64,000 nt of DNA from Candidatus Omnitrophota bacterium (lineage in GTDB: Bacteria; Omnitrophota; Omnitrophia; Omnitrophales; Aquincolibacteriaceae), in assembly GCA_043732705.1 (NCBI GenBank), contig JAYTHE010000029.1:70445-134444 (forward strand), given 5' to 3'. Each line of letters opens with the position of its first letter. Within the stretch, counting starts at the first letter, position 1. The notes beneath the pieces were generated by a model that saw only the letters and a program-made list of their open reading frames with translations, did not search any database and was not told the origin of the DNA. The position numbers and the translations under genes are program-made. Shown here in pieces: positions 506 to 53,224 of the stretch.

Positions 506-580
506 GGTTGCACCTTAACAGGGCAGAATATAACTATGCGTGAGTACCGGTTGCGCCTTGGCGCAGAGGTAAAATAAACT
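506..580. repeat. palindromic element (PE) family GGTTGNGC-loop-GCN'CAGAG: one degenerate copy (506-533) + one full copy (546-580) inside aspC-like 3' end
   Basis: ccggttgcgc cttg gcgcagaggtaaaataaac. Confidence 0.7.
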
Positions 581-1739
581 GTGCCATACGGCGAACGGCT
601 TCTTCAATATCTTTTTCGCTCGTCGCATAACTGACGCGAATATGTTTAGCACTCCCAAAGGGTTCGCCCGGCACCACCGCCAAATGCGCTTTCTCAAGCA
701 GTAATTCAGAGAGCTGCAATCCGGTCATGCCGGTATCCGCGATATTAATAAAAAGATAAAAAGCTCCTTCGGGACGAAAAGGTTTCAAAGAAGGAATCGC
801 TTTCAACAAATTGATGAAAAGATCCCGGCGCTTTTCATAAACCGCGCACATTTTTGCGGCTTCCGTATCGCCTTGATCAAGCGCCGTAATGCCGCCGGCC
901 TGCGCGAAAGAATTGGGGTTGGATGTTGAATGGCTTTGAAAGCTGGCGACGGCTTTGGCAAGCGGTTTATCGGGAATACCGGCATAACCCAAACGCCAGC
1001 CGGTCATCGCATAGGCCTTGCTATGGCCGTTTACAACGATGGTACGGGCGGCAATCTCCGCATCCAACGAAGCGATCGAAACGGCTTTAATTCCGCCAAA
1101 AGTAAGCTTCTCATAAATTTCATCACTCAAAATCTGGACATGCGGATTTTTTTTCAAAACGGGAATTAAAGCCCGCAATTCTTTTTCGGAATAAACTGCG
1201 CCCGTCGGATTAGACGGCGAATTTAAAATTAAAAGTTTGGTCTGAGGTGTAATACTTTTTTCAAGCATCGCAGGCGTGATTTTAAACCCGGTAGCTTCCG
1301 TTGTTTCAATCAAAACACTTTTAGCGCCGCACAAAATGGCCATTTCCGGGTAGCTGAGCCAAAACGGCGAAGGAATCAGAACTTCATCACCGGGATTAAG
1401 CATGGCATAAAACACATTAAAAATAACATGCTTCGCTCCGCAGCCAACCACAACTTGTTCGGGTTCAAAAGTAAGGCCTTGGTCGCGCTTAAATTTACGA
1501 ATGACCGCCTGTTTAATTTCAGGAGTACCGGTTTCGGGAGTATATTTTGTGGCGCCTTTTTGAAGGGCTTGAATCGCTGAATCTTTGATGAATTGCGGTG
1601 TATCGAAATCCGGCTCACCCGCGCTGAGAGAGATGACATCCAAACCTTGTGCGCGCATCGCTTTCGCTTTGGCAGCAATACCCAGGGTGAGAGAAGGCTT
1701 TACGGCTGTAACACGGTCCGAAAGTCTAATTGAACTCAT
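534..1739 (-). CDS. PLP-dependent class I/II aminotransferase (aspartate aminotransferase family)
   Basis: 401-aa ORF; motifs SLSAGEPDFDTP, NPSNPTG, SKAYAMTGWRLGY typical of AspC-family; last ~12 codons encoded by a palindromic repeat element. Confidence 0.85.
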   Translation of the reverse strand: MSSIRLSDRVTAVKPSLTLGIAAKAKAMRAQGLDVISLSAGEPDFDTPQFIKDSAIQALQKGATKYTPETGTPEIKQAVIRKFKRDQGLTFEPEQVVVGCGAKHVIFNVFYAMLNPGDEVLIPSPFWLSYPEMAILCGAKSVLIETTEATGFKITPAMLEKSITPQTKLLILNSPSNPTGAVYSEKELRALIPVLKKNPHVQILSDEIYEKLTFGGIKAVSIASLDAEIAARTIVVNGHSKAYAMTGWRLGYAGIPDKPLAKAVASFQSHSTSNPNSFAQAGGITALDQGDTEAAKMCAVYEKRRDLFINLLKAIPSLKPFRPEGAFYLFINIADTGMTGLQLSELLLEKAHLAVVPGEPFGSAKHIRVSYATSEKDIEEAVRRMAQFILPLRQGATGTHA

Positions 1740-1764
1740 GACTTAACCACCCGTTAAAATTAAA

Positions 1765-1816
1765 CTGCTCTGGGCTTCTCCAACCTTGCGGTTGGGTGGA
1801 AACCCAGAGCAATAAC
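1765..1816. repeat. PE, composite inverted pair (rplQ-aminotransferase spacer)
   Basis: ctgctctgggcttctccaacc / gcggttgggtggaaacccagagc. Confidence 0.8.
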
Positions 1817-1825
1817 AAATCGTGC

Positions 1826-2377
1826 TTACTGTTCGCGTTTGAAGAACTTGCGCAGATTACCGACAAAACCCTTTTTCTTTTCAGGGTCTTTATCTGCCGT
1901 TTTCTCAGAAACTTGCGTTTCTTCGGCCTTTTTGGATTTCTTGTCTGTCGTCGTTACTTCGGCTGCGACTTCTTTTTTAGCAGCAGCTTTTTTAGCTTTT
2001 TTCTTATACACAGGCGCATCAAAAATCTCCGTGAATTCAAGTAAAGCACGCTGCGCACCATCGCCTGTCCGTACTGTCGTTTTCAAAACACGGGTATAAC
2101 CGCCTTTGCGCTCACCGAATTTTGGCAAGATTTGAGTGACAACTTGTTCAGCGGCACGTGCGCATCCCAATTTTGAAATCAGTAAACGGCGTGCATGTAA
2201 ACCACCGCGTTTGGCAAGCGTCACCAAACTATCCACAAAGGCGCTGGTTTCACGCGCTTTGGCATAAGTCGTCACTATGCTTTTGCGATGGATAAGGCTT
2301 TTCGCCAGATTGCGCAAAAGTGCGGTACGGTGATCGGTTGTAACCCCTAATTTTCTTCTCATTTTACGATGGCGCAT
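1826..2377 (-). CDS. rplQ: 50S ribosomal protein L17 with ~50-aa Lys/Ala/Glu-rich C-terminal extension
   Basis: N-terminus MRHRKMRRKLGVTTDHRTALLRNL matches L17; tail KKKAKKAAAKKEVAAE... Confidence 0.95.
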   Translation of the reverse strand: MRHRKMRRKLGVTTDHRTALLRNLAKSLIHRKSIVTTYAKARETSAFVDSLVTLAKRGGLHARRLLISKLGCARAAEQVVTQILPKFGERKGGYTRVLKTTVRTGDGAQRALLEFTEIFDAPVYKKKAKKAAAKKEVAAEVTTTDKKSKKAEETQVSEKTADKDPEKKKGFVGNLRKFFKREQ

Positions 2378-2412
2378 GTCGATACCCTTTTATTTACTGA
2401 CAGTCTAAGCTA

Positions 2413-2478
2413 CGCGGTTGAGCGAAGCTCAGAGCATTAATGGCGGCTGAGACAACGTCTCAGAGCCAAAATATTTAC
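2413..2478. repeat. PE x2 tandem (rpoA-rplQ spacer)
   Basis: cggttgagcgaagctcagagc + ggctgagacaacgtctcagagccaaaatatttac. Confidence 0.8.
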
Positions 2479-2484
2479 TACTGA

Positions 2485-3516: not shown

Positions 3517-3540
3517 AACAAACCTCCTAGTACTATTAAA

Positions 3541-3568
3541 TTTTTGCTCTGAGGCTACGCCTCAATCG
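3541..3568. repeat. PE, inverted orientation (rpsD-rpoA spacer)
   Basis: tttttgctctgaggctacgcctcaatcg. Confidence 0.7.
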
Positions 3569-3615
3569 CACTGAAACTATCTAATCTTTTATTTAAAAAA
3601 TCTGTCCGCTCAAAA

Positions 3616-4613: not shown

Positions 4614-4636
4614 TCTGCATCACTCCTGTTGCGATT

Positions 4637-4670
4637 ATATTTTGCCTCTGAGCCTGACGGCTCAACCGGC
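4637..4670. repeat. PE, inverted orientation (rpsM-rpsK spacer)
   Basis: atattttgcctctgagcctgacggctcaaccggc. Confidence 0.8.
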
Positions 4671-4681
4671 AATCAACTAAA

Positions 4682-5190: not shown

Positions 5191-5237
5191 TTTAAACCCC
5201 TTAACCTAACTTATTTTATCTTTACCCAGGCAACCTG

Positions 5238-5268
5238 CCGATTGCGCCGGCGGCGCAGAGGCAAAATG
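5238..5268. repeat. PE (infA-rpmJ spacer), tail overlaps infA stop
   Basis: ccgattgcgccggcggcgcagaggcaaaatg. Confidence 0.75.
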
Positions 5269-5487
5269 TCATTTCACGCGGTAAGTAATTCGCCCGCGGC
5301 TTAAATCATACGGTGAAAGTTCCACCTTAACCGAATCTCCCGGTAAAATGCGGATATAATTCATACGCATTTTTCCCGAAATATGCGCAAGAATAATGTG
5401 CCCATTTTCAAGTTGAACACGAAAGCGAGCATTAGGCAGCGGTTCCACCACTTTACCTTCTACTTCAATCGCTTCTTCTTTGGCCAT
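5269..5487 (-). CDS. infA: translation initiation factor IF-1
   Basis: 72 aa, S1-like fold sequence [30 protein letters not shown]. Confidence 0.95.
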
Positions 5488-5539: not shown

Positions 5540-6325
5540 CTATTTGACGGTTGGGCATCGCCCAGAGCCAAAGTTGTAATAGCCGCCTGTTAAATTTATA
5601 AATCCGTTTTCCGTAAACGCTATCGTATCTTCATAATGGCTTGCCCAGGAACGGTCTTTCGTTACCACGGTCCAGCCATCCGCTAAAATCTGTACTTCAT
5701 GCGAACCCTGCGTCACCATCGGCTCAATCGCCAAAACTAACCCCGGCTCAATCTTTAACCCTCTGCCCGCTTTCCCATAATTTGGAACCTGCGGTTCTTC
5801 ATGCAAACTTTTTCCGATTCCGTGCCCGACAAAATCTCGCACAACACCGTAACCGCGTGATTCAATATGCGCTTGAATCGCTGCTGACAAATCACCGATT
5901 TGACAGCCCGGTTTATACGCTGCAAGTCCCGCTTCCATTCCACCTTTGGAAGCATCGATCAACTTCTGGGTTTTCGCATCGGCTCCGCCGACGCACCAGG
6001 ATCTTGCCGCATCCGAATAAAAACTTTTGTATATCACTCCAATATCAAAACTTACCAGGTCGCCTTTTTTCAACTTTTTATTTCCCGGAATTCCATGCAC
6101 CACTTCTTCGTTCACCGAGATGCAGGCTACCTTCGGAAAACCGCGATATCCTTTAAATGCGGATGTGCCGCCATTTGCACGAATTATTTTATCCGCAATC
6201 GCGTCCAAATCATTCGTTGTCGCGTTTTCCACAACCGTCGGCTGCACAGCGGCAAAGATCTTTTGTATGATCATCGCCGCTTCCTGCATAATTTCAATCT
6301 CGCGCTTAGATTTAAGCTCGATCAT
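5540..6325 (-). CDS. map: methionine aminopeptidase type I (C-terminal 10 aa encoded by a repeat element)
   Basis: 261 aa; metal-binding D/D/H/E/E motifs (FVGHGIG, LAIEPM); location between adk and infA. Confidence 0.9.
   Translation of the reverse strand: MIELKSKREIEIMQEAAMIIQKIFAAVQPTVVENATTNDLDAIADKIIRANGGTSAFKGYRGFPKVACISVNEEVVHGIPGNKKLKKGDLVSFDIGVIYKSFYSDAARSWCVGGADAKTQKLIDASKGGMEAGLAAYKPGCQIGDLSAAIQAHIESRGYGVVRDFVGHGIGKSLHEEPQVPNYGKAGRGLKIEPGLVLAIEPMVTQGSHEVQILADGWTVVTKDRSWASHYEDTIAFTENGFINLTGGYYNFGSGRCPTVK
5546..5580. repeat. PE inside map 3' coding end
   Basis: gacggttgggcatcgcccagagccaaagttgtaat encodes FGSGRCPTVK. Confidence 0.8.
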
Positions 6326-8766: not shown

Positions 8767-8782
8767 AATTTTCTTACGCCTT

Positions 8783-8815
8783 TACGGTTGGGCGAAGCCC
8801 AGAGTGAAATATCAC
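8783..8815. repeat. PE (rpsE-rplO spacer; where rpmD would be)
   Basis: tacggttgggcgaagcccagagtgaaatatcac. Confidence 0.8.
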
Positions 8816-9405
8816 AGGCCTTCATAACCAACATCACTTTCTTCTTTTCGAAGGCGCTTATTCACAAGCGATTTTAAACCTTCTACAGTTGCTTTAAAAA
8901 CATTGACTGAGTTATCGCTGCCGAGACTCTTGGTCAAAATATCTTTGATTCCGCAAGATTCACAAACGGCACGAACCGCGCCGCCGGCAATAATTCCCGT
9001 TCCGGGAGCCGCCGGTTTCAAAAGCACTCTTGCTGCGCCGAAACGGCCGACAACTTCATGAGGTATCGTCGTCCCTTTCATAATAATCTTAATCGAACGC
9101 TTACGTGCGGCGGTGACAGCCTTGCGAATTGCATCCGCAACTTCGCCCGCTTTACCCTGGCCAAAACCAAGCTCGCCGTGGCCATTTCCGACCACAACAA
9201 GCGCGCTAAAACTAAAACGCTTACCACCCTTAACAACTTTGGAGGAACGGTTAATATCAACAACCTTTTCAAAATTAGTTGATTTAGCTTCCGGTGTAGA
9301 TCCGTCCAAAACATCCACAACTGCCAATGTCGCAACCGAAGGCACCGCCAAACGTTTTGCGCGTTCTGCTTCGGATTCTTTTTTTGCTTTCAACTTATCT
9401 GCCAT
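8812..9405 (-). CDS. rpsE: 30S ribosomal protein S5 (with ~35-aa N-terminal extension)
   Basis: S5 dsRBD and C-domain motifs ([29 protein letters not shown]); start chosen at MADKLK with SD; L30 gene absent downstream. Confidence 0.9.
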
Positions 9406-9420
9406 ATTTCCTTCTTTATT

Positions 9421-9512
9421 TCTGCTCTGGGTTTCACCCAACCGCAAATTTTATTTTCTTACTTTATGTCTATTCCGCCGGTTGAGCTAAAGCTCAGAGG
9501 CAAAATTAATAG
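9421..9512. repeat. PE x2, opposite orientations (rplR-rpsE spacer)
   Basis: tctgctctgggtttcacccaaccgc ... gccggttgagctaaagctcagaggcaaaattaat. Confidence 0.8.
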
Positions 9513-9876: not shown

Positions 9877-9923
9877 AAATCAATCCTCTTCGATTCTAAA
9901 TTTTTGCTTAACGTTGCTGCTAA

Positions 9924-9958
9924 CGGCGGTTGCGCTTCAGCGCAGAGCCAAAACGTTA
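9924..9958. repeat. PE (rplF-rplR spacer)
   Basis: cggcggttgcgcttcagcgcagagccaaaacgtta. Confidence 0.85.
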
Positions 9959-10495
9959 ACTGCCGACTTTCTTACCTTGTTTGCGGCGCACTTGCTCGCC
10001 GACATAACGAATTCCCTTGCCCTTATACGGCTCCGGAGGACTAAAACTGCGAATTTCAGCGGCAGCTTGCCCCACCGACTGCTTATCTGCACCTGTAATA
10101 ACAATACGTGTTGGACTTGGACACTTGATATCAAGACCTTCTTCGATTTGGTAATCACTCGGGTGAGTAAAGCCAAGTACCATACTTAACACTTTACCCT
10201 TGATCGCCGCCTTAAAACCAACACCGATAAGCTCCAACTCTTTAACATATCCTTCAGTGACACCTTGAATCATATTACGAATGACTGCACGCGTTGTACC
10301 ATGCAAAGAGCGGTCAAGCGGCTCATCCGAAGAGCGGGTCACCACAACTTCTTTATCTTTTGATTCAACTTTGATTTTCGAGTGCACATCAAAATTAAGC
10401 TCCCCCTTAGGCCCCTTGACTTTGATCTTTTGACCCTGAATCGTAATTTGTACTTTATCCAGAACTGATACTGGTTTTCTTCCTACTCTCGACAT
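9956..10495 (-). CDS. rplF: 50S ribosomal protein L6
   Basis: MSRVGRKPVSV... Confidence 0.95.
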   Translation of the reverse strand: MSRVGRKPVSVLDKVQITIQGQKIKVKGPKGELNFDVHSKIKVESKDKEVVVTRSSDEPLDRSLHGTTRAVIRNMIQGVTEGYVKELELIGVGFKAAIKGKVLSMVLGFTHPSDYQIEEGLDIKCPSPTRIVITGADKQSVGQAAAEIRSFSPPEPYKGKGIRYVGEQVRRKQGKKVGS

Positions 10496-10537
10496 AATTC
10501 TTTTCCTTAAACTTTACTTAACCTTTTTAGCACTTAT

Positions 10538-10570
10538 ACGATTGCGCTTTAGCGCAGAGCAAAACAATAC
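10538..10570. repeat. PE (rpsH-rplF spacer)
   Basis: acgattgcgctttagcgcagagcaaaacaatac. Confidence 0.8.
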
Positions 10571-10578
10571 AGACAGCG

Positions 10579-10977: not shown

Positions 10978-10994
10978 GCGTTCTTTTTCTCCTA

Positions 10995-11090
10995 TTGCGG
11001 TTGTGCGCCTTTAAGCGCACAGAGCCAAATATCACTAACTCGATTTAATTACCTTTTTGCGCTTAAGCGCAAAAGAGGCGAAAAATTACA
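10995..11090. repeat. PE x2 (rpsZ-rpsH spacer)
   Basis: ttgcggttgtgcgcctttaagcgcacagagccaaatatcac ; tttttgcgcttaagcgcaaaagaggcgaaaaattac. Confidence 0.8.
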
Positions 11091-11296: not shown

Positions 11297-11917
11297 TTAT
11301 CTTTTTTTGAATGGAAAACCGAGAAGCTCCAAAAGCTTTTTGGCTTCCTGGTTATTCGTTGCCGTTGTCACAAAAGTCACGTCCATACCCTGGACTTTTT
11401 TAACTTTATCAAATTGAACCTCGGAAAAAACGGTTTGTTCCGTGATTCCGATCGAAAAATTTCCGCGGCCGTCAAAGCTTCGGTCCGAATATCCTTGAAA
11501 ATCGCGGATACGCGGCATCGCTAAATTGAACAAACGGTCCATAAATTCATACATGCGCGCTTTGCGGAGAGTTACTTTCAAACCGATCGGAGAGTTTTCG
11601 CGCAGTTTAAACGCGGAAATCGCCTTCTTGGCGCGGCGCACAACCGGCTTTTGTCCGGTGATCAAAGAAAGTTCTTCAGCACATTGCTCAAAAATCTTGA
11701 TATCGGAAGGGCCTTCTTTAATACCCATATTCACAACGATTTTTTGAAGCTTCGGAATCTGCATCTTGTTCTTATAGCCAAATTCTTTAGCAAGCTGCGG
11801 AGAAATTTCCGCATCATACTTCGCCTTCAATCGCGGCGTATAATTTGATTTCTCATTTATTTTTTTTGCCGGTTGAGCGGAGCGCTCAGAGGCAGATTTT
11901 TTATCGTCCGTTGCCAT
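11297..11917 (-). CDS. rplE: 50S ribosomal protein L5 (N-terminal ~25-aa extension containing a repeat element)
   Basis: L5 core KLQKIVVNMGIKEG...; ATG 11917 preceded by AGGAGAGG SD and overlaps rplX stop (TAATATG). Confidence 0.9.
   Translation of the reverse strand: MATDDKKSASERSAQPAKKINEKSNYTPRLKAKYDAEISPQLAKEFGYKNKMQIPKLQKIVVNMGIKEGPSDIKIFEQCAEELSLITGQKPVVRRAKKAISAFKLRENSPIGLKVTLRKARMYEFMDRLFNLAMPRIRDFQGYSDRSFDGRGNFSIGITEQTVFSEVQFDKVKKVQGMDVTFVTTATNNQEAKKLLELLGFPFKKR
11868..11907. repeat. PE inside rplE 5' coding extension (inverted orientation)
   Basis: gccggttgagcggagcgctcagaggcag encodes SASERSAQPA on minus strand. Confidence 0.8.
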
Positions 11918-12853: not shown

Positions 12854-13150
12854 TTACGACGCGCTCCTGCTGGTTATATTTTTACTCTGGGTCTTCGACC
12901 CAACCGCGGCCTTGCTCTGAGACTTCGTCTCAGTCGCACTTTGTTGAGACTTTGTCTCAACTGCTTTTTGCTGATTCGCCACTGTTAGAACTCTTGCAAT
13001 ATCACGGCGCATTTCTTTAATCGTGGAATGTTTTTCCAGCTTGCCCAATTTCGCATCAAAACGAAGCTGCATGAGTTGCTTTTTCAGCTGTGTTTCTTTT
13101 TCCGCTAATTCTTCTTTGCTTAAATTTTGGTAATCAGCTACTTTTGCCAT
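12854..13150 (-). CDS. rpmC: 50S ribosomal protein L29 with ~35-aa C-terminal tail encoded by three palindromic repeat units
   Basis: MAKVADYQNLSKEELAEKETQLKKQLMQLRF L29 core; TAATATG junction with rplP; tail AVETKSQQSATETKSQSK... Confidence 0.85.
   Translation of the reverse strand: MAKVADYQNLSKEELAEKETQLKKQLMQLRFDAKLGKLEKHSTIKEMRRDIARVLTVANQQKAVETKSQQSATETKSQSKAAVGSKTQSKNITSRSAS
12876..12964. repeat. PE x3 forming the rpmC C-terminal tail
   Basis: tactctgggtcttcgacccaaccgcgg ; ctgagacttcgtctcag ; ttgagactttgtctcaa. Confidence 0.8.
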
Positions 13151-13585: not shown

Positions 13586-13620
13586 TTGCCGCTGAGCGTT
13601 AGCTCAGAGGCAAATATTAC
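13586..13620. repeat. PE (rpsC-rplP spacer)
   Basis: ttgccgctgagcgttagctcagaggcaaatattac. Confidence 0.8.
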
Positions 13621-13622
13621 CC

Positions 13623-14912: not shown

Positions 14913-14948
14913 CTTGCGGTTGGGCAAAACCCAGAGCTAAAATTTAAC
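14913..14948. repeat. PE (rpsS-rplV spacer)
   Basis: cttgcggttgggcaaaacccagagctaaaatttaac. Confidence 0.85.
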
Positions 14949-15250: not shown

Positions 15251-15297
15251 TTTATTTTTTCCCTATCTAATCTTGTTTTATCAATTCTTGCTTACAA

Positions 15298-15331
15298 CAG
15301 CGGTTGCGCTTTAGCGCAGAGCCAAATATTA
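15298..15331. repeat. PE (rplB-rpsS spacer), tail supplies rplB stop
   Basis: cagcggttgcgctttagcgcagagccaaatatta. Confidence 0.85.
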
Positions 15332-16156
15332 CTTTCTTCTGTCTTTCACAATAAACTTGTTCGTGATTTTCGATTTCTTACGAGTCTTAAGACCTTTGGA
15401 TTTTTGACCCCAAGGACTCTTCGGATGTTCATTCGACTTCGACTTCGCCTCACCACCACCCATCGGATGGTCAACAGGGTTACGAACAATCGCGCGCGTA
15501 ATTGGGCGACGGCCCATCCAACGTGTTTTTCCGGCTTTTCCGTATACTAATTTTTCATGTTCAAGATTTGAACATTGGCCGATTGTCGCGAAAGCATTGA
15601 CAGGAACCAAACGCACTTCACCCGAGGGCATTTTCACGTGAGCATAAGCGCCTTCTTTTGCAAGAATCTGTGCCATTCCGCCTGCGGCACGAACCATTTT
15701 TCCGCCGCGGCCGGCAAGAAGCTCAATATTATGAATCGGCGAGCCTTCAGGAATACGGCTCAAAGGAAGATGATTGCCAAGCTTTACTTCTGCTTCGGGG
15801 CCGCTCACAATTTTTTCGCCGACTTTCAAACCATCCGGGCAAATGATGTAGCGCTTTTCACCATCTTCATATTGGACAAGCGAAATACGCGAGCTGCGAT
15901 TGGGGTCATATTCCACGGTCAGCACAGTTGCGGGAATTCCAAAACGTTCGCGGCGAAAATCAACGATACGAATGCGGCGCTTATGCCCGCCTCCGCGGCC
16001 ACGCTTCGTGATATGTCCGTGATTGTTGCGGCCACCGGAAGAATGCTTGCTTAACGTCAACGGCCAATGCGGTTTGCTGACTGTTAATTCAGCAAAGTCT
16101 GATACCTGCTTGTAGCGCCCTGACGGCGTAATTGGTCTAAATTTTGTCAATCCCAT
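15329..16156 (-). CDS. rplB: 50S ribosomal protein L2
   Basis: 275 aa, GRNNHGHITKRGRGGGHKR. Confidence 0.95.
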   Translation of the reverse strand: MGLTKFRPITPSGRYKQVSDFAELTVSKPHWPLTLSKHSSGGRNNHGHITKRGRGGGHKRRIRIVDFRRERFGIPATVLTVEYDPNRSSRISLVQYEDGEKRYIICPDGLKVGEKIVSGPEAEVKLGNHLPLSRIPEGSPIHNIELLAGRGGKMVRAAGGMAQILAKEGAYAHVKMPSGEVRLVPVNAFATIGQCSNLEHEKLVYGKAGKTRWMGRRPITRAIVRNPVDHPMGGGEAKSKSNEHPKSPWGQKSKGLKTRKKSKITNKFIVKDRRK

Positions 16157-16197: not shown

Positions 16198-16235
16198 AAT
16201 CGCGGTTGGGCAAAGCCCAGAGCCAAAATATTACT
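16198..16235. repeat. PE (rplW-rplB spacer)
   Basis: tcgcggttgggcaaagcccagagccaaaatattac. Confidence 0.85.
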
Positions 16236-17211: not shown

Positions 17212-17940
17212 CTATTTTTTTTCCGCTTCAGTTTTCTCAATCGCCGGTTGAGCAGAAGGCTCAGAGGCAGAATTCGACTGGGCCGAATGAACTAGCCAAG
17301 ACTTTGCTTTCCCTTTTTTCAGAGAATTCTTAATTACAAGATATCCGCCGTTATGCCCCGGAATACTCCCGCGGACAATTAAAACGCCCTGCTCTTCATC
17401 AGCATCGACCACAAAGCAATTTGATTTGGTAATAGTATCTGTACCCATATGTCCGGCCATTTTACGTCCGCGATAAGTGCGGCCCGGGGTCGAGTTTTGT
17501 CCGGTTGATCCGGCTTCGCGGCCAAACTTAGAACCATGAGCGGCTTCGCCGCCCTTAAAACCGTGGCGCTTAATAACACTTTGAAACCCTTTACCTTTGG
17601 AAACTCCGGTCACATCAATATAGTCACCTGCTTCAAATTGCTTCACGGAAAGCTGCGCGCCCAGCGTCAAACCTTCGAGTTTTTCCGAACGGATTTCACG
17701 GATAAAATGCATCGCGTCTTTAACGCCGGATTTCTTAATGTGACCCATGAGGGCCTTGCCCAAATTCTTTTCTTTTGCCTTGCCATAAGCAAGCTGAACA
17801 GCCTGATAACCGTCTTTTTCTTTGGTGCGAATCGCCGTTACATAGCAAGGCGAGCAATCCAAAACCGTGACCGGAATTTGGCGGCCATCTTCATCAAACA
17901 CCTGTGTCATTCCAACTTTTTTTCCGAGCAAACCAATCAT
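17212..17940 (-). CDS. rplC: 50S ribosomal protein L3
   Basis: MIGLLGKKVGMTQVFDEDG. Confidence 0.95.
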   Translation of the reverse strand: MIGLLGKKVGMTQVFDEDGRQIPVTVLDCSPCYVTAIRTKEKDGYQAVQLAYGKAKEKNLGKALMGHIKKSGVKDAMHFIREIRSEKLEGLTLGAQLSVKQFEAGDYIDVTGVSKGKGFQSVIKRHGFKGGEAAHGSKFGREAGSTGQNSTPGRTYRGRKMAGHMGTDTITKSNCFVVDADEEQGVLIVRGSIPGHNGGYLVIKNSLKKGKAKSWLVHSAQSNSASEPSAQPAIEKTEAEKK

Positions 17941-17958: not shown

Positions 17959-18034
17959 TTGATGCGCATCGTTCCCGATCGCAGAGCAAAATATTTTTTC
18001 ATTGCGCTTGAGCCAAAGGCTCAGAGCCCTTTAC
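17959..18034. repeat. PE-like x2, variants (rpsJ-rplC spacer)
   Basis: ttgatgcgcatcgttcccgatcgcagagcaaaatat ; attgcgcttgagccaaaggctcagagccc. Confidence 0.6.
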
Positions 18035-18345
18035 AATTTGATCTGTACGTCCACGCCCGCTGGTAAATCGAGCTTCTGGAGCGCATCCACCGTGCGGGAT
18101 GTCGGCTCTTCCAATTCAATCAAACGCTTGTGTGTACGAACTTCGTATTGGTCACGCGCCTTCTTATCAATATGCGGTCCGCGCAAAACAGTCGTCTTCC
18201 AAATGTGCGTCGGCAAAGGAATCGGGCCGATGATTTTAGCGCCGGTGCGGCGTGCTGTTCCGACAATTTCATGCACTGATTGATCCAGCACACGGCTGTC
18301 GTAAGCTTGCAGCTTAATTCTAATTTTTTCTTTTACTTGCGCCAT
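18031..18345 (-). CDS. rpsJ: 30S ribosomal protein S10
   Basis: [21 protein letters not shown]. Confidence 0.95.
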
Positions 18346-20525: not shown

Positions 20526-20562
20526 AAAAATAAACGTTCGGTAAGTTTTAACTTACCGAACC
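20526..20562 (-). terminator. hairpin + U-tract between rpsG and fusA (attenuator-like)
   Basis: GTTCGGTAAGTTAAAACTTACCGAAC followed by GUUUAUUUUU on minus transcript. Confidence 0.45.
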
Positions 20563-21497: not shown

Positions 21498-21571
21498 TTT
21501 GCGGTTGCGCCAAAGCGCAGAGCCAAAAGTTATCGTGCGGTTGTGCCAAAGGCACAGAGCCAAAAATATTA
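21498..21571. repeat. PE x2 tandem (rpoC-rpsL spacer)
   Basis: tgcggttgcgccaaagcgcagagccaaaag ; tgcggttgtgccaaaggcacagagccaaaaatatta. Confidence 0.85.
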
Positions 21572-29435: not shown

Positions 29436-29465
29436 GGAAAAATCAGGGGCTCGCACGAGCCCCTG
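29436..29465 (-). terminator. rplL-rpoB attenuator/partial terminator
   Basis: CAGGGGCTCGTGCGAGCCCCTG + AUUUUUCC on minus transcript; same position as the known rplL-rpoB attenuator in enterobacteria. Confidence 0.55.
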
Positions 29466-29898: not shown

Positions 29899-29940
29899 TT
29901 GATTCGAGCCTCCTTGATGATGATTTCAAAAACGTTTTAC

Positions 29941-30063
29941 TTTTTGCTCTGCGTTATGCGCAACCGCGGTTGGGCTTTTGCCCAGAGCCTAAACTTTACA
30001 GTGCGCCCATTTTTTTGCTCTGCTTTAAACGCCGGTTGCGGCGATGTCGCAGAGGCAAAAATA
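29941..30063. repeat. PE x3 (rplJ-rplL spacer)
   Basis: tttttgctctgcgttatgcgcaaccgc ; cgcggttgggcttttgcccagagcc ; gccggttgcggcgatgtcgcagaggcaaaaatatta. Confidence 0.8.
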
Positions 30064-30600: not shown

Positions 30601-30629
30601 ATTTTCCTCTATCTAACTTTGTTTGCTTT

Positions 30630-30667
30630 TCGCGGTTGCGCCTTCTGCGCAGAGCAAAAAAATGTTT
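30630..30667. repeat. PE (rplA-rplJ spacer / L10 leader position)
   Basis: tcgcggttgcgccttctgcgcagagcaaaaaaatg. Confidence 0.8.
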
Positions 30668-31354: not shown

Positions 31355-31363
31355 ACTGTTTCC

Positions 31364-31393
31364 TTTTAACTCTGCGCTTTCGCGCAACCGTTA
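31364..31393. repeat. PE, inverted orientation (rplK-rplA spacer)
   Basis: ttttaactctgcgctttcgcgcaaccgtta. Confidence 0.75.
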
Positions 31394-31819
31394 ACCTTCA
31401 ATAACTTCGATACCCATGCTCCGCGCTGTACCTTCGACTACTCTCATGGCACTTTCGAGCTTGGTCGCATTCATATCCACCATTTTCTTTTTGGCGATTT
31501 CAGCAACCTGGGATTTCTTAATTTGACCAATTTTTACTTTGCCAGCTTCACCGGATGCTTTTGCCAAACCAACCGCTTTTTTAATTGAAGCGGAAACCGG
31601 CGGCTGCTTAAGAATAAAATCAAAAGACTTATCTTTGTAAACCGTCATCACAACAGGGAAAACAGTTCCCATGTCTTTTTTTGTGCGTTCGTTGAACTGC
31701 TTACAGAACTCCATGATGTTAACACCATGTTGACCGAGCGCAGGACCTACCGGAGGAGCAGGATTCGCTTGTCCGCCCGGAAGCTGTAATTTGATATATG
31801 TTTTAATTTCTTTTGCCAT
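31391..31819 (-). CDS. rplK: 50S ribosomal protein L11
   Basis: [32 protein letters not shown]. Confidence 0.95.
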
Positions 31820-31826
31820 CTGTGTC

Positions 31827-31860
31827 TTTTTCGCTCTGAGCGTTTAAACGCTCAACCGCG
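31827..31860. repeat. PE, inverted orientation (nusG-rplK spacer)
   Basis: tttttcgctctgagcgtttaaacgctcaaccgcg. Confidence 0.8.
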
Positions 31861-31874
31861 ATTCCTTTTCTCGT

Positions 31875-32608: not shown

Positions 32609-32624
32609 TTAATCTCTCAACTAT

Positions 32625-32706
32625 TTTACGGTTGCGCCTTAGCGCAGAGCCAAATCTTTTACTGTGCGGCTGGGCATCATCACCCAGAGCCGAAACATAT
32701 CGTACG
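32625..32706. repeat. PE x2 (upstream of secE)
   Basis: tacggttgcgccttagcgcagagccaaatc ; gcggctgggcatcatcacccagagccgaaacatatcgtac. Confidence 0.8.
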
Positions 32707-32710
32707 ATAC

Positions 32711-32730
32711 AGGCCTGGTAGGTTCGGCAC
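32711..32730 (-). other. partial duplicate of tRNA-Trp 3' end (att-like direct repeat)
   Basis: aggcctggtaggttcg vs aggcctggtaggattcg at 32941. Confidence 0.55.
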
Positions 32731-32898
32731 CTTCCGTTCATGTCCGCTAGTCGCGGCATTCACTACAGGTTGCCACCCGCTTCGCCTGGCCTTCGCTATA
32801 CGCGAATCTGACATTAGTCAGATTCTTGCTCCGCTCAGCTTCGTCATTTGCGAAGCTCCCTTCGAAACCTACTTAACAATCGCTCTTGCCAACTCTTT

Positions 32899-32940
32899 CC
32901 GCCGGTTGCGCTGGCAACGCAGAGGCGAAATAATTCGTAC
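32899..32940. repeat. PE abutting tRNA-Trp 3' end
   Basis: ccgccggttgcgctggcaacgcagaggcgaaataattcgtac. Confidence 0.75.
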
Positions 32941-33038: not shown

Positions 33039-33082
33039 CTTCGCGGTTGTGCCAAAAGCACAGAGCCAAAATAACTCGTTAC
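33039..33082. repeat. PE (rpmG-tRNA-Trp spacer), tail supplies rpmG stop
   Basis: cttcgcggttgtgccaaaagcacagagccaaaataactcgtta. Confidence 0.8.
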
Positions 33083-33274: not shown

Positions 33275-33312
33275 AAAAAATCCCCGCTGATTTTTCAGCG
33301 GGGATTTAAAAA
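33275..33312 (-). terminator. intrinsic terminator after tuf (stem ATCCCCGCTG/CAGCGGGGAT + T6)
   Basis: 10-bp GC-rich stem followed by UUUUUU on minus-strand transcript. Confidence 0.7.
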
Positions 33313-34754: not shown

Positions 34755-34782
34755 ATTCTATCCTCGGTTTTTCGCATGTCAA
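34755..34782 (-). promoter_or_regulatory. sigma70-like promoter (TTGACA-16-TAGAAT) directed at tRNA-Thr/tuf
   Basis: read on minus strand in AT-rich spacer with upstream A-tracts. Confidence 0.4.
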
Positions 34783-37002: not shown

Positions 37003-37828
37003 ACATATTGCCGGAGCTGCAGCAAATCATGAAGCAGTTCACGAAGCGCACGAGTTCCCCAACTTCATCCACTTACTTTCCGACCGCTTCCACGATTCCG
37101 CCATTTTGCATTTTATGCATCAGTGGGAAAACCTTTTTTTCTCAGGAACAATTTTAGTTCTCATTTCCTCCATCCTTTTGATTGCTGCTGCGCGTGACAC
37201 ATTGATTCCGGATGTTTTTCGAAATGCGGTCGAAGCGCTTGTCGAAGGCATTGAAAATTTCATTGTCAGCATCTTGGGCGAAGAAGGCCGCAAGCATGTT
37301 CCTTTTTTAGGCACAACTTTTCTTTATATCTTCTTCATGAATTACTGCGGGTTGTTTCCTTTTTTTAAATCTCCGACTTCTTCTTTAAACACTACGATTC
37401 CTTTGGCTTTGATTGCGGTTTGTTATATTCAATATTGGGGGCTTCGCGAACTAGGTTTTAAAAAATATTTACTGCATATCGCCGGCAGCCCGGAAGGCAT
37501 CGCCTCGTGGATCATCGGCGTCATTCTGCTTTTCCCGCTTAATATCATGCTTGAGTTCCTCGCTGTTCCATTAAGTTTATCCGTTCGTCTCTTCGCGAAC
37601 GTCTCGAGTGAAGACTCTTTGCTTTATCAATTTTCGCGCATTGTTTTGCGTTCATATTTATTCGCTTTTCCGCTGCAGCTTTTTGGAAATGCCCTCGCGT
37701 TTCTTTTCAGCGGAATTCAAGCTTTCGTTTTTACTTTGCTGACAACCGTTTATATCAAAGCCATGATGCCCGGTGAACATGGCCCCGAACACTCTGAGTC
37801 TTTGACTCAACCGGTATCGGGACATTAA
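36980..37828 (+). CDS. atpB: F0F1 ATP synthase subunit a
   Basis: conserved LSLSVRLFANV (essential Arg) motif. Confidence 0.85.
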   Translation: MTESIQSEHIAGAAANHEAVHEAHEFPNFIHLLSDRFHDSAILHFMHQWENLFFSGTILVLISSILLIAAARDTLIPDVFRNAVEALVEGIENFIVSILGEEGRKHVPFLGTTFLYIFFMNYCGLFPFFKSPTSSLNTTIPLALIAVCYIQYWGLRELGFKKYLLHIAGSPEGIASWIIGVILLFPLNIMLEFLAVPLSLSVRLFANVSSEDSLLYQFSRIVLRSYLFAFPLQLFGNALAFLFSGIQAFVFTLLTTVYIKAMMPGEHGPEHSESLTQPVSGH

Positions 37829-38610: not shown

Positions 38611-39191
38611 AAGACGCAGGAATTATCGCCAAACGCTACGCGGAAGCCCTTTTCAACCTCTGCCTGAAGGAAAAGAACCTTGGGGTGGTTGAAAAGTCTT
38701 TTGATTCGTTTGTAAATGAAACCACGAAGAACACAACTTTCGTGCACTTCATGGAGAGCCCCGTGATTCCGCATAAAAGCAAAGAAGCTGTGCTTGAAAA
38801 AATTATTCCTCAAGGAATGCCGCCGCTCTTGGTGCTTTTTTTGAAACTGGTCCTGGCTAAAAAAAGGTTTGAAGTTTTGACTTTGATCGAAAAAACTTTT
38901 CAACAGCGCTCGGAACGCTATCGCGGTGTTCATCGGGCGGAATTAACCACGGCGGTTGCCGTGGAGCTCGCGGCAGAAAAAAAACTAACCGCACTGCTTG
39001 AAAAGAAATTTTCTCGAGAGAAAATTTCGGCTTCTGAGCCTTCGGCTCAACCGGAAGTTATTCTTACAAAAAAAGTTGATCCCAAAATATTGGGCGGATT
39101 TATTTTAAAATGGGATGAGCTCGTCGTTGATGCGAGCTATCAAACAAAATTACGCGAAATGAAGCAGCGGCTCTATGCCACCGCGATCTAA
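38607..39191 (+). CDS. atpH: F0F1 ATP synthase subunit delta
   Basis: position between b and alpha; OSCP-like length. Confidence 0.8.
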   Translation: MKDAGIIAKRYAEALFNLCLKEKNLGVVEKSFDSFVNETTKNTTFVHFMESPVIPHKSKEAVLEKIIPQGMPPLLVLFLKLVLAKKRFEVLTLIEKTFQQRSERYRGVHRAELTTAVAVELAAEKKLTALLEKKFSREKISASEPSAQPEVILTKKVDPKILGGFILKWDELVVDASYQTKLREMKQRLYATAI

Positions 39192-43337: not shown

Positions 43338-43451
43338 TATTTGCCTCTGCGTTGTTTTTTAGTCTCTGCGTTTCACGCAACCGACAATAAAAATAACGCA
43401 ATTGGCAAAAACAAATTCCGGTTGCGCTTTGGCGCAGAGGAAAAAGAATAC
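43336..43451. repeat. PE x3 (one half, one inverted, one direct) in atpD-atpC spacer
   Basis: atatttgcctctgcg ; gtctctgcgtttcacgcaaccgac ; tccggttgcgctttggcgcagaggaaaaagaatac. Confidence 0.8.
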
Positions 43452-44620: not shown

Positions 44621-46594
44621 ATGCTGAGTTTATGTTGGACAATTTTGGGATTGCCGCTTGCCGCTTCCGCGGTGATTTCGCTTTTATTAATTCCCGCCGA
44701 AAAGGCCGCTAAAGATAAACATTTTTTCCGCACAGCATCTGCCTTTTTGTCCGTTCTTTCGATGGCAGCCGCATTCGGCTTAAGTCTTTTGCTTCTGCAG
44801 AACTTCCGCAGCATTGAAAACCATAGCGAGGTTTTTGAAACTTCCCTGAATTGGATGACTTTACCGCAATTCCGGATTGAAATCGGTTTGCTTCTCAATA
44901 ATCTTACATTGCTGATGCTTTTAATTGTGACCGGCGTATCTTTACTCGTAGCACTATTCTCCTCCCGGTACATGAAAGGCGAAGAGGGCTATTCCCGTTA
45001 TTTTGCCGCGCTTTCTTTTTTTGCTTTTTCAATGCTCGGAATCGTGCTTTCCAATAATTTGATCCAGATTTTTATTTTTTGGGAATTGGTCGGTGTGGCT
45101 TCTTATCTTTTAATCGGTTTCTGGTTTGAAAAGCCTTCGGCCAGCATCGCATCAAAAAAAGCTTTTCTCGTAACGCGTATCGGTGACGTTGGCATGATGC
45201 TTGGCATTCTGCTTTTGCTCGGGCTATTACTCAAATCCGGCACTGGTACATTTAACTTTCTTGAGTTGGAAACAAGACTGCATCAGTCTGCTTTACCGGC
45301 CGGGCTTTTCACCTTGGCCTGCATTGGTATTTTTTTCGGAGCCGTTGGTAAATCGGCGCAGGTGCCTTTGCATGTTTGGCTGCCGGATGCGATGGAAGGT
45401 CCGACACCGGCCAGTGCATTAATCCACGCCGCGACCATGGTTGCTGCGGGCGTGTTCATGCTTGCCCGTCTTTTCTTTTTATTTGAAATGAGTCCAGTAA
45501 CACTGCAAATCATAGCTTGGACCGGTATTATCACCGCTTTTCTCGCGGCATCCATTGCTGTTGTTCAAAATGACATTAAAAAGGTACTCGCCTACTCCAC
45601 GCTTTCGCAGCTGGGATATATGGTCATGGCCGTCGGCCTTAAAAACCCCGAAGCCGGAATGTTTCATTTAACAACCCACGCTTTTTTCAAAGCCTTGCTC
45701 TTTCTTGGCGCCGGCAGTTTGATCCATGCTCTGCACACGCAGGATATATGGGAGATGTCGGCACTGGTCCGTTCCGACCAAAGTCATTCTGCCTCTGCGT
45801 CTTCGACGCAACCGGCACATCGCAGCTGGCTAAAAACTATTCCTATCACAGGTCTTACTTTTCTAATCGGAACTGCCGCGCTTGCAGGGCTTCCTTTTAC
45901 GAGCGGTTTTTTCAGCAAAGAAGAAATTCTCGGTGCGGCTTCGACCGGTCCCCGCATTGTTTTTGGAATGGCACTTGCGGTTGTTTTTCTGACAGCTTTC
46001 TACATGGGCCGCGCTGTTACAATTATCTTCTGGAGCTCCGCTCCAACCAGACACCCTCAAAAACATGTGGAAATACATGAAGATAATTGGATGATTACTG
46101 TTCCGCTGCTTATCCTCGCTGTTTTTTCTTTAATTGCCGGCTATTTACCTTTCAAATCATTTTTAGAGAATCAAACAGCGCATGCTGAAATTCATCCGCA
46201 GTGGCTGGCTGCGGCTTCAGTCACCCTTGCTTGCTGCGGACTTTTACTCAGTTTTGTTCTTTACCGCCGGTCTTCTTCGCCTCTGAGCCAAGGGCTCAAC
46301 CGGAAAAACCTCCTAACTCAACTCGTCACATTTCTTAAAGAAAAATATTATTTCGATAAATTCTATGACTGGTTCATCATTCATGTTCAGGAAAATATCG
46401 CGCGTGCCGCGGACAACTTCGAACGTGTCGTGCTTGAACGCGGCGGCAATCAAGGTTTGGCGGGTTTAACGCAATTTCTGGGAAATACAGCGCGTAAATT
46501 ACAAAACGGCTGGATCCAAAGCTATGCTCTTGTTTTCGCAATCGGCTTTATTGCATTGGTTGCTTATCTTGTATTTTGCGGAGCAAAGTTATGA
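44621..46594 (+). CDS. nuoL: NADH-quinone oxidoreductase subunit L
   Basis: WLPDAMEGPTPASALIHAATMVAAG motif; start moved to ATG 44621 after the MITE-like spacer element. Confidence 0.9.
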   Translation: MLSLCWTILGLPLAASAVISLLLIPAEKAAKDKHFFRTASAFLSVLSMAAAFGLSLLLLQNFRSIENHSEVFETSLNWMTLPQFRIEIGLLLNNLTLLMLLIVTGVSLLVALFSSRYMKGEEGYSRYFAALSFFAFSMLGIVLSNNLIQIFIFWELVGVASYLLIGFWFEKPSASIASKKAFLVTRIGDVGMMLGILLLLGLLLKSGTGTFNFLELETRLHQSALPAGLFTLACIGIFFGAVGKSAQVPLHVWLPDAMEGPTPASALIHAATMVAAGVFMLARLFFLFEMSPVTLQIIAWTGIITAFLAASIAVVQNDIKKVLAYSTLSQLGYMVMAVGLKNPEAGMFHLTTHAFFKALLFLGAGSLIHALHTQDIWEMSALVRSDQSHSASASSTQPAHRSWLKTIPITGLTFLIGTAALAGLPFTSGFFSKEEILGAASTGPRIVFGMALAVVFLTAFYMGRAVTIIFWSSAPTRHPQKHVEIHEDNWMITVPLLILAVFSLIAGYLPFKSFLENQTAHAEIHPQWLAAASVTLACCGLLLSFVLYRRSSSPLSQGLNRKNLLTQLVTFLKEKYYFDKFYDWFIIHVQENIARAADNFERVVLERGGNQGLAGLTQFLGNTARKLQNGWIQSYALVFAIGFIALVAYLVFCGAKL

Positions 46595-51571: not shown

Positions 51572-51670
51572 CAAAGGTTAAAAGTAAAATCTGAAAATAT
51601 AACTTAAAGGCCAAAATTATCCGGACAGTTTTTATTTTTGGGCTATGGTTTTAATCTTTAAGATTTAACC
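51572..51670. repeat. left ~100-bp inverted repeat flanking EVE gene (MITE-like family)
   Basis: ...ataacttaaaggccaaaattatccggacagtttttatttttgggctatggttttaatctttaagatttaacc. Confidence 0.7.
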
Positions 51671-52119: not shown

Positions 52120-52123
52120 AACA

Positions 52124-52235
52124 ACTTAAAGGTTAAAGCTCAAAAGTCAAAACCATAGCCCGAAACTAAAAACTGTCCGGATAGTTTTGGCCTTTAAGTT
52201 ATAGTTTTAAGCTTTTACCTTTAACTTTTAACCTT
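52124..52235. repeat. right ~105-bp inverted repeat flanking EVE gene
   Basis: reverse complement ~85% identical to 51572-51670, 40-bp core with one mismatch. Confidence 0.7.
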
Positions 52236-52599
52236 TCTTAATTGCCCCTAAAATAAAAAATATCCATCCCGTCATCAAAAGTAGCCCGCCAATTGGCGTA
52301 ACAGCACCAAAGCCGCGAATACCCGTTAGCGCTAATATATAGAGACTGCCCGAAAAAACAATAACCCCAGCCGTAAAACAAGTTCCCGCACGAGAAATAA
52401 GTTTCGAATCGAAAACAGAAACAGCCCAAGAAGCGGCAAGCAGGGCAAAAGCATGATAAGTCTGATAACGCACGCCGGTTTCAAAAATGAGGAGCATTTC
52501 AGAGGACAAATGTTGTTTTAGGGCATGGGCGCCAAAGGCTCCCAACAGAACGCTTAAAAACCCAAACACTGTGCCTGTAATAAACAACATTTTTTGCAT
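52228..52599 (-). CDS. DUF423-family small membrane protein
   Basis: GAFGAHAL motif, 4 TM. Confidence 0.6.
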   Translation of the reverse strand: MQKMLFITGTVFGFLSVLLGAFGAHALKQHLSSEMLLIFETGVRYQTYHAFALLAASWAVSVFDSKLISRAGTCFTAGVIVFSGSLYILALTGIRGFGAVTPIGGLLLMTGWIFFILGAIKKG

Positions 52600-52706
52600 G
52601 GAAGCATTATACAGAAAATATGGAAACCCTGATAGACGACAGCTCCATTTTTGGTTTAAAATATTCGAGATCGTTTTAACCATCTTTTCATCGAGGGAGA
52701 TTCATA

Positions 52707-53072
52707 ATGAAAAATTCACCCGTTCTTAAACTTTTAGCTCTTTTGCTCGCCTTTGGCATGGCTTTATCAGGCTGCAGCACAACCAAGGTCGCCAAGGATT
52801 GGAATGGCGTTTCATCCCCGGATGGTAAGCCACTTGCTCATGTCAGCACATCCAATATGGCGATCCATTTGTTGCTGGGGAAAAATCCGGCCTGGGGCAA
52901 TGCAAGTCTTGAACAAACCGTTTCAGACTTCACAGCCGCTGCCAAAGCTCAGGGCGCGTCCAAAGTGCGCATTGTTCAATCGAACAGCACTTCATGGTGG
53001 TTCATATTCTTCCCGTTCTCCTTGCTTGTTACTCCTGTAACCAGCAATGTAGCCGGAGACGCGATCGCCTAA
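52707..53072 (+). CDS. putative lipoprotein
   Basis: LLAFGMALSGCSTT lipobox; GAGGGAGA SD. Confidence 0.55.
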   Translation: MKNSPVLKLLALLLAFGMALSGCSTTKVAKDWNGVSSPDGKPLAHVSTSNMAIHLLLGKNPAWGNASLEQTVSDFTAAAKAQGASKVRIVQSNSTSWWFIFFPFSLLVTPVTSNVAGDAIA

Positions 53073-53089
53073 GCGGTTTCTTTTCGCAA

Positions 53090-53128
53090 ATAAAAAACGC
53101 GGGGTCAGAAATGACCTCGCGTTTTTCT
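53090..53128. terminator. bidirectional intrinsic terminator between convergent lipoprotein gene and nuoI
   Basis: A6-ACGCGGGGTCA-GAAA-TGACCTCGCGT-T5. Confidence 0.65.
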
Positions 53129-53153
53129 TTTACGGTATTGAAAGAATAAAATT

Positions 53154-53224
53154 AACCGTTTGCGGTCAGGTGTAATCCAGAGCAAAAGCTACGGTTGCGC
53201 GAAGCGCAGAGTAAAAAGATGCGG
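53154..53224. repeat. PE x2 (variant + canonical) downstream of nuoI
   Basis: tttgcggtcaggtgtaatccagagcaaaagc ; tacggttgcgcgaagcgcagagtaaaaagatgcgg. Confidence 0.7.

Follow-up and report, generated by a model that had tools for sequence, protein, structure and literature searches.

A hairpin repeat in a ribosomal superoperon

The stretch of DNA analysed here (the window) comprises 64,000 nucleotides of contig JAYTHE010000029.1 from a Candidatus Omnitrophota bacterium (positions 70,445 to 134,444), and its most conspicuous feature is a short palindromic repeat dispersed among its genes. The minus strand carries a ribosomal superoperon, which runs from about 34.7 kb down to 0.5 kb in the order tRNA-Thr, tuf, rpmG, tRNA-Trp, secE-nusG, rplKAJL, rpoBC, rpsLG-fusA, the S10, spc and alpha genes to rplQ, and an aminotransferase gene. 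The plus strand from 35 to 49.5 kb is occupied by F-type ATP synthase genes and nuoJKLMN, and GC skew in the window tracks the coding strand. The L17 protein of the window is most similar to those of Candidatus Omnitrophota metagenome-assembled genomes (MAGs). The nearest genome that we found is the MAG GFS_12873 (JAYSWD01), with 82-89% nucleotide identity.

The pattern GGTTG-NGC-N3-12-GCN-CAGAG had 23 exact matches in the window, compared with 0 expected from shuffled sequences. When only the flanks were scanned and the middle was ignored, 35 CTCTG..CAACC sites were found, and 29 of them had at least three perfect base pairs. We built a covariance model (R1) from 35 copies. At a cut-off of E < 0.01, it detected 43 copies in the window, close to the roughly 40 counted in a preliminary description of this DNA. 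Thirty-five of them lie within 1-34.6 kb (27 direct and 8 inverted with respect to the minus-strand operon) and the other eight in the remaining 29 kb. Under stem-blind detection, Watson-Crick pairs were present in 525 of 568 stem cells. We regard it as confirmed that the hairpin family is genuine.

The preliminary description had placed a copy in almost every spacer. About 25 of the roughly 37 junctions from tuf to the aminotransferase gene carry one, so that "most" is correct and "almost every" is not. Likewise, the spacers do hold the majority of the copies, but at least 10 copies are within open reading frames (ORFs). The repeat had also been called unassignable to a described family, and it stayed so. 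Rfam (release 15) returned only tRNAs for the whole window and six other loci, even at E ≤ 5, and no published description of the hairpin family was found in the literature on Omnitrophota repeats or on its motif.

Structure of the repeat unit

On the strand that most mRNAs carry, the repeat reads (weak GTRATA)-TTTTG-S-CTCTG-NGC(N)-loop-(N')GCN'-CAACCG-S'. With a variable stem of 3-5 bp and a loop of 3-7 nt, it spans about 30-38 nt. The helix is laid out as TTTTG, a 2-bp clamp (S:S' and C:G), an internal loop of TC opposite ACC, the TG:CA pairs and then the variable stem. For statistics on structure we used 134 distinct copies from the window and related loci. The covariation of N and N' claimed previously holds both in the window (CG 13, AU 12, GC 7, UA 3) and in the larger set (CG 64, AT 36, GC 24, TA 9). 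A second covarying pair, S:S', which is formed by the base before CTCTG and the base after CAACCG, was absent from the preliminary description. Its combinations were GC 16, CG 10, AU 3, UA 1 and GU 3 in the window copies, and GC 63, CG 51, AT 5 and TA 3 among the 134. S:S' adjoins the invariant C:G pair, and the two pairs enclose the conserved internal loop.

The inner sequences are highly diverse (100 distinct ones among the 134 copies), whereas CTCTG, CAACCG and the two unpaired stretches are nearly invariant. It had been proposed that the hairpin, not the primary sequence, is selected. The stem does covary, but the near invariance of the flanks and the two unpaired stretches speaks against the second half of the proposal. 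In addition, orthologous copies differ by several paired changes simultaneously, which is better explained by replacement with another family member than by slow compensatory evolution.

The AT-rich tail fared worse. In its full form (CAAAATATTAC), it had 3 matches at two or fewer mismatches, and only TTTTG beside the hairpin is conserved. As the full consensus with the AT tail (CAGAGSCAAAATATTAC) also gave 3 matches only, we excluded the tail beyond TTTTG from the element. A copy fitting the full consensus is the direct one between rplW and rplB (16199-16234, minus). Other direct copies, all on the minus strand, carry variants of the right flank: CAGCC in the rpoA-rplQ spacer (2440-2477; 40.7 bits), CAATC between rpsH and rplF (10535-10571), CAAGC between rpsJ and rplC (18001-18038) and CAGCG in a degenerate copy between rpsC and rplP (13586-13621; 25.8 bits). 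The stem of the direct copy between rpsS and rplV (14913-14948, minus) includes a U.G pair. Next to the CAGCC copy of the rpoA-rplQ spacer, the second member of a tandem pair (2414-2435, minus; 25 bits) is direct and without the TTTTG tail.

The GGTTG..CAGAG form is more stable than its complement in 125 of the 134 copies, as had been claimed, and GAA or AAA loops are found in 43 copies on that strand compared with 11 on the other. Wobble pairs were counted under unbiased detection, as G.U versus A.C on the mRNA strand, with totals of 19 and 12 for the two strands. These numbers left it undecided which strand folds in vivo and whether function is strand-specific, as had been suggested. We also considered likeness to attC sites, CRISPR repeats, boxA and K-turns from the sequence and rejected it: the copies form no regular array, their flanks lack the mutual complementarity of attC and tandem G.A pairs are missing.

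Placement and movement of the copies

Many copies closely follow a gene. In 42 of the 69 direct copies that adjoin a long ORF, CTCTG lies 5-19 nt downstream of the stop codon, and the TTTTG tail begins 0-13 nt past it. The statement that copies often abut or supply stop codons was thus right. In the window, the tail stands directly after the stop codons of rplB (15297-15333, minus) and rpoC (21535-21571, minus). The latter copy is accompanied in the rpoC-rpsL spacer by another direct one, the second of a tandem pair (21498-21534, minus; 46.3 bits). Direct copies also begin 8 nt past the infA stop codon (5235-5272, minus; CAATC variant), immediately past that of rplJ (30029-30066, minus), right after that of a nuoI-like gene (53188-53223, minus) and 3 nt after tRNA-Trp (32899-32936, minus), and others are found after rpmG (33040-33077, minus; 45.1 bits) and between rplQ and the aminotransferase gene (1785-1821, minus; 37.1 bits). 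A second group of copies is situated just inside the end of an ORF. Inverted copies abut stop codons as well. They are present in the spacers rpsD-rpoA (3535-3572, plus; 39.9 bits), rplR-rpsE (9413-9448, plus) and nusG-rplK (31822-31862, plus), and one occupies the whole rplK-rplA spacer (31358-31394, plus). In the rplJ-rplL spacer, the 3' end of an inverted copy (29935-29970, plus) faces a direct one (29963-29999, minus) and overlaps it by a few bases. When neighbours within 120 nt were counted, 13 were tandem and 6 inverted, and about 100 of 138 copies were solitary. No enrichment was seen for a "TTAGATA" motif in the interval from a copy to the following start codon (5 found, 4.6 expected).

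Orientation is linked to transcription. Of the copies between tandem genes, 63 (79%) share the orientation of transcription and 17 oppose it, and the intergenic contexts are almost all ++, -- or convergent. In the window, the copies of the plus-strand atp/nuo region number 6 on the plus and 1 on the minus strand, compared with 27 on the minus and 8 on the plus strand for the minus-strand ribosomal genes. Transcription and replication could be separated as references for orientation at the atp/nuo operon only, given few mixed-strand loci and crude gene calls. There the copies follow transcription. A direct one comes after atpD (43352-43387, plus), accompanied by an inverted one between atpD and atpC (43415-43451, minus). 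The prevailing orientation places the weaker CUCUG..CAACC form in the mRNA.

Could the copies simply be unusual terminators or attenuators that punctuate operons? They are G+C-rich hairpins behind genes, as such sites would be. However, no U-tract follows the hairpin in either orientation, and the U-rich stretch precedes it. Up to three copies stand between genes of operons that need read-through, and some are in coding sequence. Moreover, a terminator scan reported none of the copies but did find canonical hairpin-plus-U terminator or attenuator sites on the minus strand after tuf (33278-33307), after rplL and before rpoB (29444-29465) and after rpsG (20536-20561). The genome therefore employs ordinary terminators alongside the repeat, and a terminator function is the least probable of the explanations that we considered. 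Hairpins outside the repeat family are also present in the fusA-rpsJ and rplV-rpsC spacers. The top sigma-70-like site of the region (34755-34782, minus; TTGACA, 16 nt, TAGAAT; 11 of 12 positions) lies just upstream of tRNA-Thr and tuf and, judged by its sequence, is a plausible candidate promoter for the head of the superoperon.

We searched for the exact 20-base pattern in one genome for each of 185,579 species and obtained 48 matches. Forty-five of them were in four related Omnitrophota MAGs (GFS_12873, SRP300315_co1_21, UBA2337 and SRP135725_co2_92), so that at least these four carry the family too. No match to the repeat pattern was found in viral contigs, and 20 kb of the same operon in an Omnitrophota relative with 55% L17 identity contained no copy. 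The same motif with other stems was present at low density in contigs of 56-61% G+C, including Hyphomicrobiales; such high-GC contigs made up 5 of the 26 metagenome stretches bearing the motif. In a Hyphomicrobiales MAG (Ske_MAG15, locus L022), a copy stands behind a gene for glyoxylate reductase that is most similar to homologues from Cohaesibacteraceae, Kaistiaceae, Amorphus and Stappia. The corresponding position is occupied in an ortholog of 90% identity and empty in one of 87% identity.

Outside the ribosomal region, a copy occurs about every 5-10 kb. The superoperon, which is an estimated 1.5% or so of a genome, holds about 10 of the 45 exact Omnitrophota matches; this corresponds to an approximately 10-fold excess. 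Copies were also found behind pnp, recJ, ftsK, dut, gltB and glnA, and uvrA of GFS_12873 has two internal copies.

When the window was aligned with GFS_12873, indels coincided with copies, in both directions. Opposite the direct copy between rplF and rplR (9923-9959, minus), the spacer of the relative is 5 nt. A direct copy between rplR and rpsE (9475-9511, minus) is missing from GFS_12873, and so is the extra copy after rplJ mentioned above (a 53-nt indel). Copies are also flipped. The one between rplA and rplJ is direct in the window (30629-30666, minus) and inverted at the GFS_12873 site, and the one between rpsM and rpsK (4634-4672, plus) is inverted in the window, identical in GFS_12873 and direct in three other relatives (L001, L003 and L005). 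The latter three have no copy where the window has a direct one between rpsE and rplO (8781-8816, minus), and their rpsE and rplO overlap. Presence and absence vary among the five relatives. For instance, a direct copy with a 5-bp stem between rpsN and rpsH (10994-11036, minus) is orthologous in L003 and GFS_12873 and absent from L001 and L005. Upstream of this intact copy there is a decayed one (ttttcgCCTCTtttgcgcttaagcgcaaaaagg; window 11040-11085), as there is in the same spacer of L003. Some copies therefore decay where they stand, whereas those beside them remain intact. In L001, the loop of one copy houses a nested second one, and tandem arrangements are frequent, also in GFS_12873. Two insertions without the hairpin family were also seen in GFS_12873 relative to the window, of 255 nt between atpC and nuoJ (1281-1535 of locus L043) and of 167 nt between nuoJ and nuoK (2065-2231).

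The repeat also enters coding sequence. Protein alignment showed an 18-aa in-frame insertion near the N-terminus of L5, where a sense copy is in the 5' end of rplE (11866-11903, minus). At the 3' end of the aminotransferase gene, a sense copy inside the ORF (544-580, minus; 37.3 bits) encodes the C-terminal ..ILPLRQGATG..; aligned proteins had 12 additional residues in all carriers, 54 in L008 and none in the non-carrier L007. NuoL of the window has a sense copy (45781-45818, plus) within a 15-aa in-frame insertion missing from GFS_12873, as seen in the protein alignment, and another (46269-46306, plus) at a local replacement that adds 5 aa relative to GFS_12873. A weak match inside nuoL (46016-46053, plus; 20.5 bits, E 0.0036) is doubtful. 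Conversely, protein alignment revealed that NuoM of GFS_12873 is longer in frame by 11 and 8 aa. Compared with UBA2337, the rpmC (L29) ORF has about 33 additional codons (about 99 extra nt, from DNA comparison only), which we attribute to two antisense copies in its extended 3' end (12873-12910, plus, and a weaker one at 12912-12940, plus; 19.3 bits). Sense copies were also found within the last map codons (5544-5579, minus; decayed at the same site of GFS_12873) and the last atpB codons (37780-37817, plus; weak, 26.1 bits). From the window sequence alone, further sense copies were placed within the last 25 or so codons of the rplC ORF (17241-17278, minus) and inside atpH (39020-39057, plus).

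The cleanest insert, in NuoM, is 33 nt long and reads CATCG-TTTTGC-CTCTG-AGCC-TTC-GGCT-CAACCG; the single-hairpin insertions of NuoL are 24-48 nt. A 33-nt insert with a single hairpin implies that the moving unit is one hairpin. Filled and empty sites, flips, tandem and nested copies and in-frame coding insertions between close relatives together establish that the repeat is mobile now or was so recently. Gains, losses, flips and tandem stacking of copies postdate the divergence of the window genome from GFS_12873. Coding-sequence insertions survive when they are in frame. The preliminary description had likened the repeat to repetitive extragenic palindromes (REPs), bacterial interspersed mosaic elements or Rickettsia palindromic elements (RPEs). 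As far as a dispersed mobile hairpin family is concerned, this reading was borne out by the filled and empty sites, flips and coding insertions.

Mobility may nevertheless be no more than the route by which a host RNA signal spreads. In such a model, UUUUG-S-CUCUG..CAACCG-S' in the mRNA would be selected right after the cistrons of highly expressed operons. There it might block 3' exonucleases, mark a U-rich processing site or contact the terminating ribosome, and thereby tune the output of neighbouring genes. The enrichment in the superoperon, in the window and in relatives, is what this model expects, as are the tight gap between stop codon and CTCTG and the co-orientation with transcription, which includes the plus-strand atp and nuo genes. 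Between the window and GFS_12873, identity is 92.6% at motif positions and 78% at other intergenic ones. This hints at local constraint on the motif. The conserved unpaired bases suggest a protein partner, and in E. coli, REPs stabilise transcripts from the 3'UTR and partly terminate transcription (bioRxiv 10.64898/2026.03.23.713779). However, such a signal makes no sense in translated sequence, where at least 10 copies reside inside genes. Inverted copies abut stop codons too, and between close relatives copies change orientation or are lost, with no compensation seen. Furthermore, G.U does not clearly exceed A.C on the mRNA strand, and the mRNA mostly carries the less stable form. We therefore regard a host RNA signal as a possible but unlikely explanation of the family, albeit the most serious of the alternatives.

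Two loci would fit hairpins that are recognised by a site-specific recombinase or an integrating element, with nearby duplications as the scars of integration. The first is a 250-nt stretch between tRNA-Trp and secE (32611-32860, minus), which is missing from GFS_12873. Within it, the final 15 nt of tRNA-Trp (cctaccaggcctgta) recur about 230 nt downstream of the original, and a repeat copy comes after each of the two. Upstream of secE, the insertion holds a direct copy (32625-32661, minus) and a degenerate direct copy of the CAGCC type (32663-32701, minus; 22 bits). The stretch has the appearance of a scar from integration or duplication, or of a small RNA without annotation; it had no Rfam match. 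The second locus is that of L022 (3640-3900), where the last 36 nt or so of the glyoxylate reductase gene, including the stop codon, occur in three repeats with a hairpin-bearing unit of about 75 nt between them. Database proteins of 437 and 440 aa (P0121 and P0122) resemble read-through ORFs across such repeats. A precedent exists in Neisseria, whose dRS3 repeats serve phages as sites. According to Di Nocera et al. (PMC3733652), these repeats are CGTC-1 REPs. Nevertheless, these are just two cases among more than 180 copies, and no integrase or prophage remnant was present beside any copy examined. The repeat pattern likewise had no match in the viral contigs, and the clean 33-nt intragenic insertions are not products of integration. 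A role as recombination or integration sites is thus very improbable, only marginally less so than one as terminators.

Apart from the repeat, the window contains a single ORF of 3378 aa (53833-63969, minus), with GT4 glycosyltransferase domains at about residues 1780-2150 and a NUDIX domain at about residues 2670-2795; the greater part of it is without Pfam matches. ARAGORN called a 94-nt tRNA-Ser within it (57120-57213), which Rfam did not confirm and which is probably a false positive.

Relation to REP-class palindromes

The reading that we favour, with a probability of about 0.62, is that the repeat is a REP-class family of miniature non-autonomous mobile palindromes that behaves like an RPE inside genes. 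The unit would move as a folded single strand, and an enzyme acting in trans would recognise the invariant unpaired bases of that strand. By analogy with REPs and the REP-associated tyrosine transposases (RAYTs), the enzyme may be an HUH tyrosine transposase. The concentration in ribosomal, ATP synthase and nuo genes and the transcription-linked orientation might reflect preferential insertion into heavily transcribed DNA or selection on effects in the transcript. Effects on mRNA stability or termination would be secondary, as has been argued for E. coli REPs.

Several similarities to REPs are evident. Both are multicopy palindromes of 20-40 nt (30-38 nt for the core of the Omnitrophota repeat) in which the unpaired bases at the stem foot are conserved and the stem shows complementary changes. 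REPs lie mainly between co-directional or convergent genes and less than 20 bp from the end of the upstream ORF, their termini can supply stop codons and complementary stem variants define sub-families; in-frame intragenic copies occasionally occur, conspicuously in uvrA, and some families are common to distant taxa (PMC3733652). The Omnitrophota copies similarly lie near upstream ORF ends, between co-directional or convergent genes, sometimes supply the stop codon, occur in uvrA and recur in distant taxa. In contrast to REPs, the repeat has no GTAG or CGTC tag, or its complement, at the stem foot; both flanks are conserved instead (CTCTG and CAACCG), with a 2-bp clamp and an internal loop. 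Its stem is shorter (5-7 bp plus the clamp). Its copies are for the most part single or in head-to-tail tandems, unlike the inverted dimers that prevail among REPs, and its strong excess in the ribosomal-protein superoperon also sets it apart. Omnitrophota is not among the 8 phyla for which that survey reports tagged REPs (PMC3733652).

A RAYT gene is usually present in a single copy per genome. With the REPIN/RAYT systems, the repeat shares the short hairpin and, within genomes, dynamics suggesting that a single-copy enzyme mobilises it in trans (PMC3116915, PMC2817692). Its unit differs in that it appears to be a single hairpin, for which the 33-nt insertion suffices, instead of an inverted doublet. 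No RAYT gene was near any copy within the loci searched.

RPEs reportedly behave in a similar manner inside genes: from the work of Ogata et al., these palindromic repeats are said to be in frame in conserved protein genes, to encode short hydrophilic peptides and to differ in their sites between related genomes. RPE-1 is about 100-150 bp long, and the hosts are Rickettsiales. The Omnitrophota repeat is likewise in frame in L5, the aminotransferase, NuoL and NuoM, at sites that vary between relatives. Comparatively, its unit is about 33 nt, it has no sequence relation to RPEs, its copies are mainly intergenic and its host belongs to a free-living or epibiotic candidate phylum. RPE-4 and RPE-6 have been classed as CGTC REPs (PMC3733652).

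The repeat is also small and situated in operon spacers. These properties it shares with miniature inverted-repeat transposable elements such as Correia/NEMIS, which are small non-autonomous operon-spacer repeats co-transcribed with the flanking genes. Those elements have the terminal inverted repeats of a parent insertion sequence and a fixed target-site duplication, whereas the Omnitrophota repeat has no visible parent insertion sequence and no consistent target-site duplication.

Several observations weigh against a REP-class family moved by a RAYT-like enzyme. No transposase was found in the window. In about 650 kb of element-bearing loci, no Y1/RAYT-like ORF was found, with no match at E < 0.4 (phmmer, with three probe sequences, IS200, IS608 and E. 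coli RAYT). The weak matches of the Y1 probes that recurred were LTXXQ and PAPS-reductase proteins. The filled and empty sites gave neither a consistent target-site duplication nor a sharp insertion boundary. We considered TAA as a duplicated target because many ribosomal copies look TAA-flanked, but its enrichment over 142 copies is modest and it is missing at the coding insertions; TAA or TAG flanks a minority of the copies only and is moderately enriched. The lack of the tag that defines the two REP super-families and the scarcity of inverted doublets, noted above, count in the same direction. The higher conservation of the motif than of other intergenic positions would not be expected for a purely selfish, locally neutral element, and the excess in the superoperon has no demonstrated mechanism.

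These points leave some room for an element that is not driven by a RAYT: a single hairpin that inserts into the non-template strand where heavy transcription exposes it, or that is kept there as an RNA mark recognised by a protein. Such an element would jointly explain the operon excess, the transcription-linked orientation even in coding sequence and the occurrence in two unrelated phyla without a visible transposase. We consider this rather doubtful. If true, a protein that recognises the invariant internal loop, TC/ACC, and either mobilises or binds the element would be expected.

Returning to the REP-class reading, the repeat is a new family within the known REP/RPE class of miniature mobile palindromes and not a new kind of system. 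It belongs to neither of the two tagged super-families, and its host phylum, a candidate one, is known almost solely from metagenomes. The core ribosomal superoperon, as well as L5, L29, NuoL and NuoM, tolerates repeated invasion by a palindrome of about 33 nt. The copies inflate or fuse ORF calls in MAGs, as seen for the extended L29, L3, Map and aminotransferase and for the database "glyoxylate reductases" of 437-440 aa. They are also likely break points of assembly and can be used as a strain-level marker. To our knowledge, the mobiliser of the CGTC super-family REPs is itself still not known. With its motif in both Omnitrophota and Hyphomicrobiales, the repeat offers a tractable case for learning what mobilises untagged REPs.

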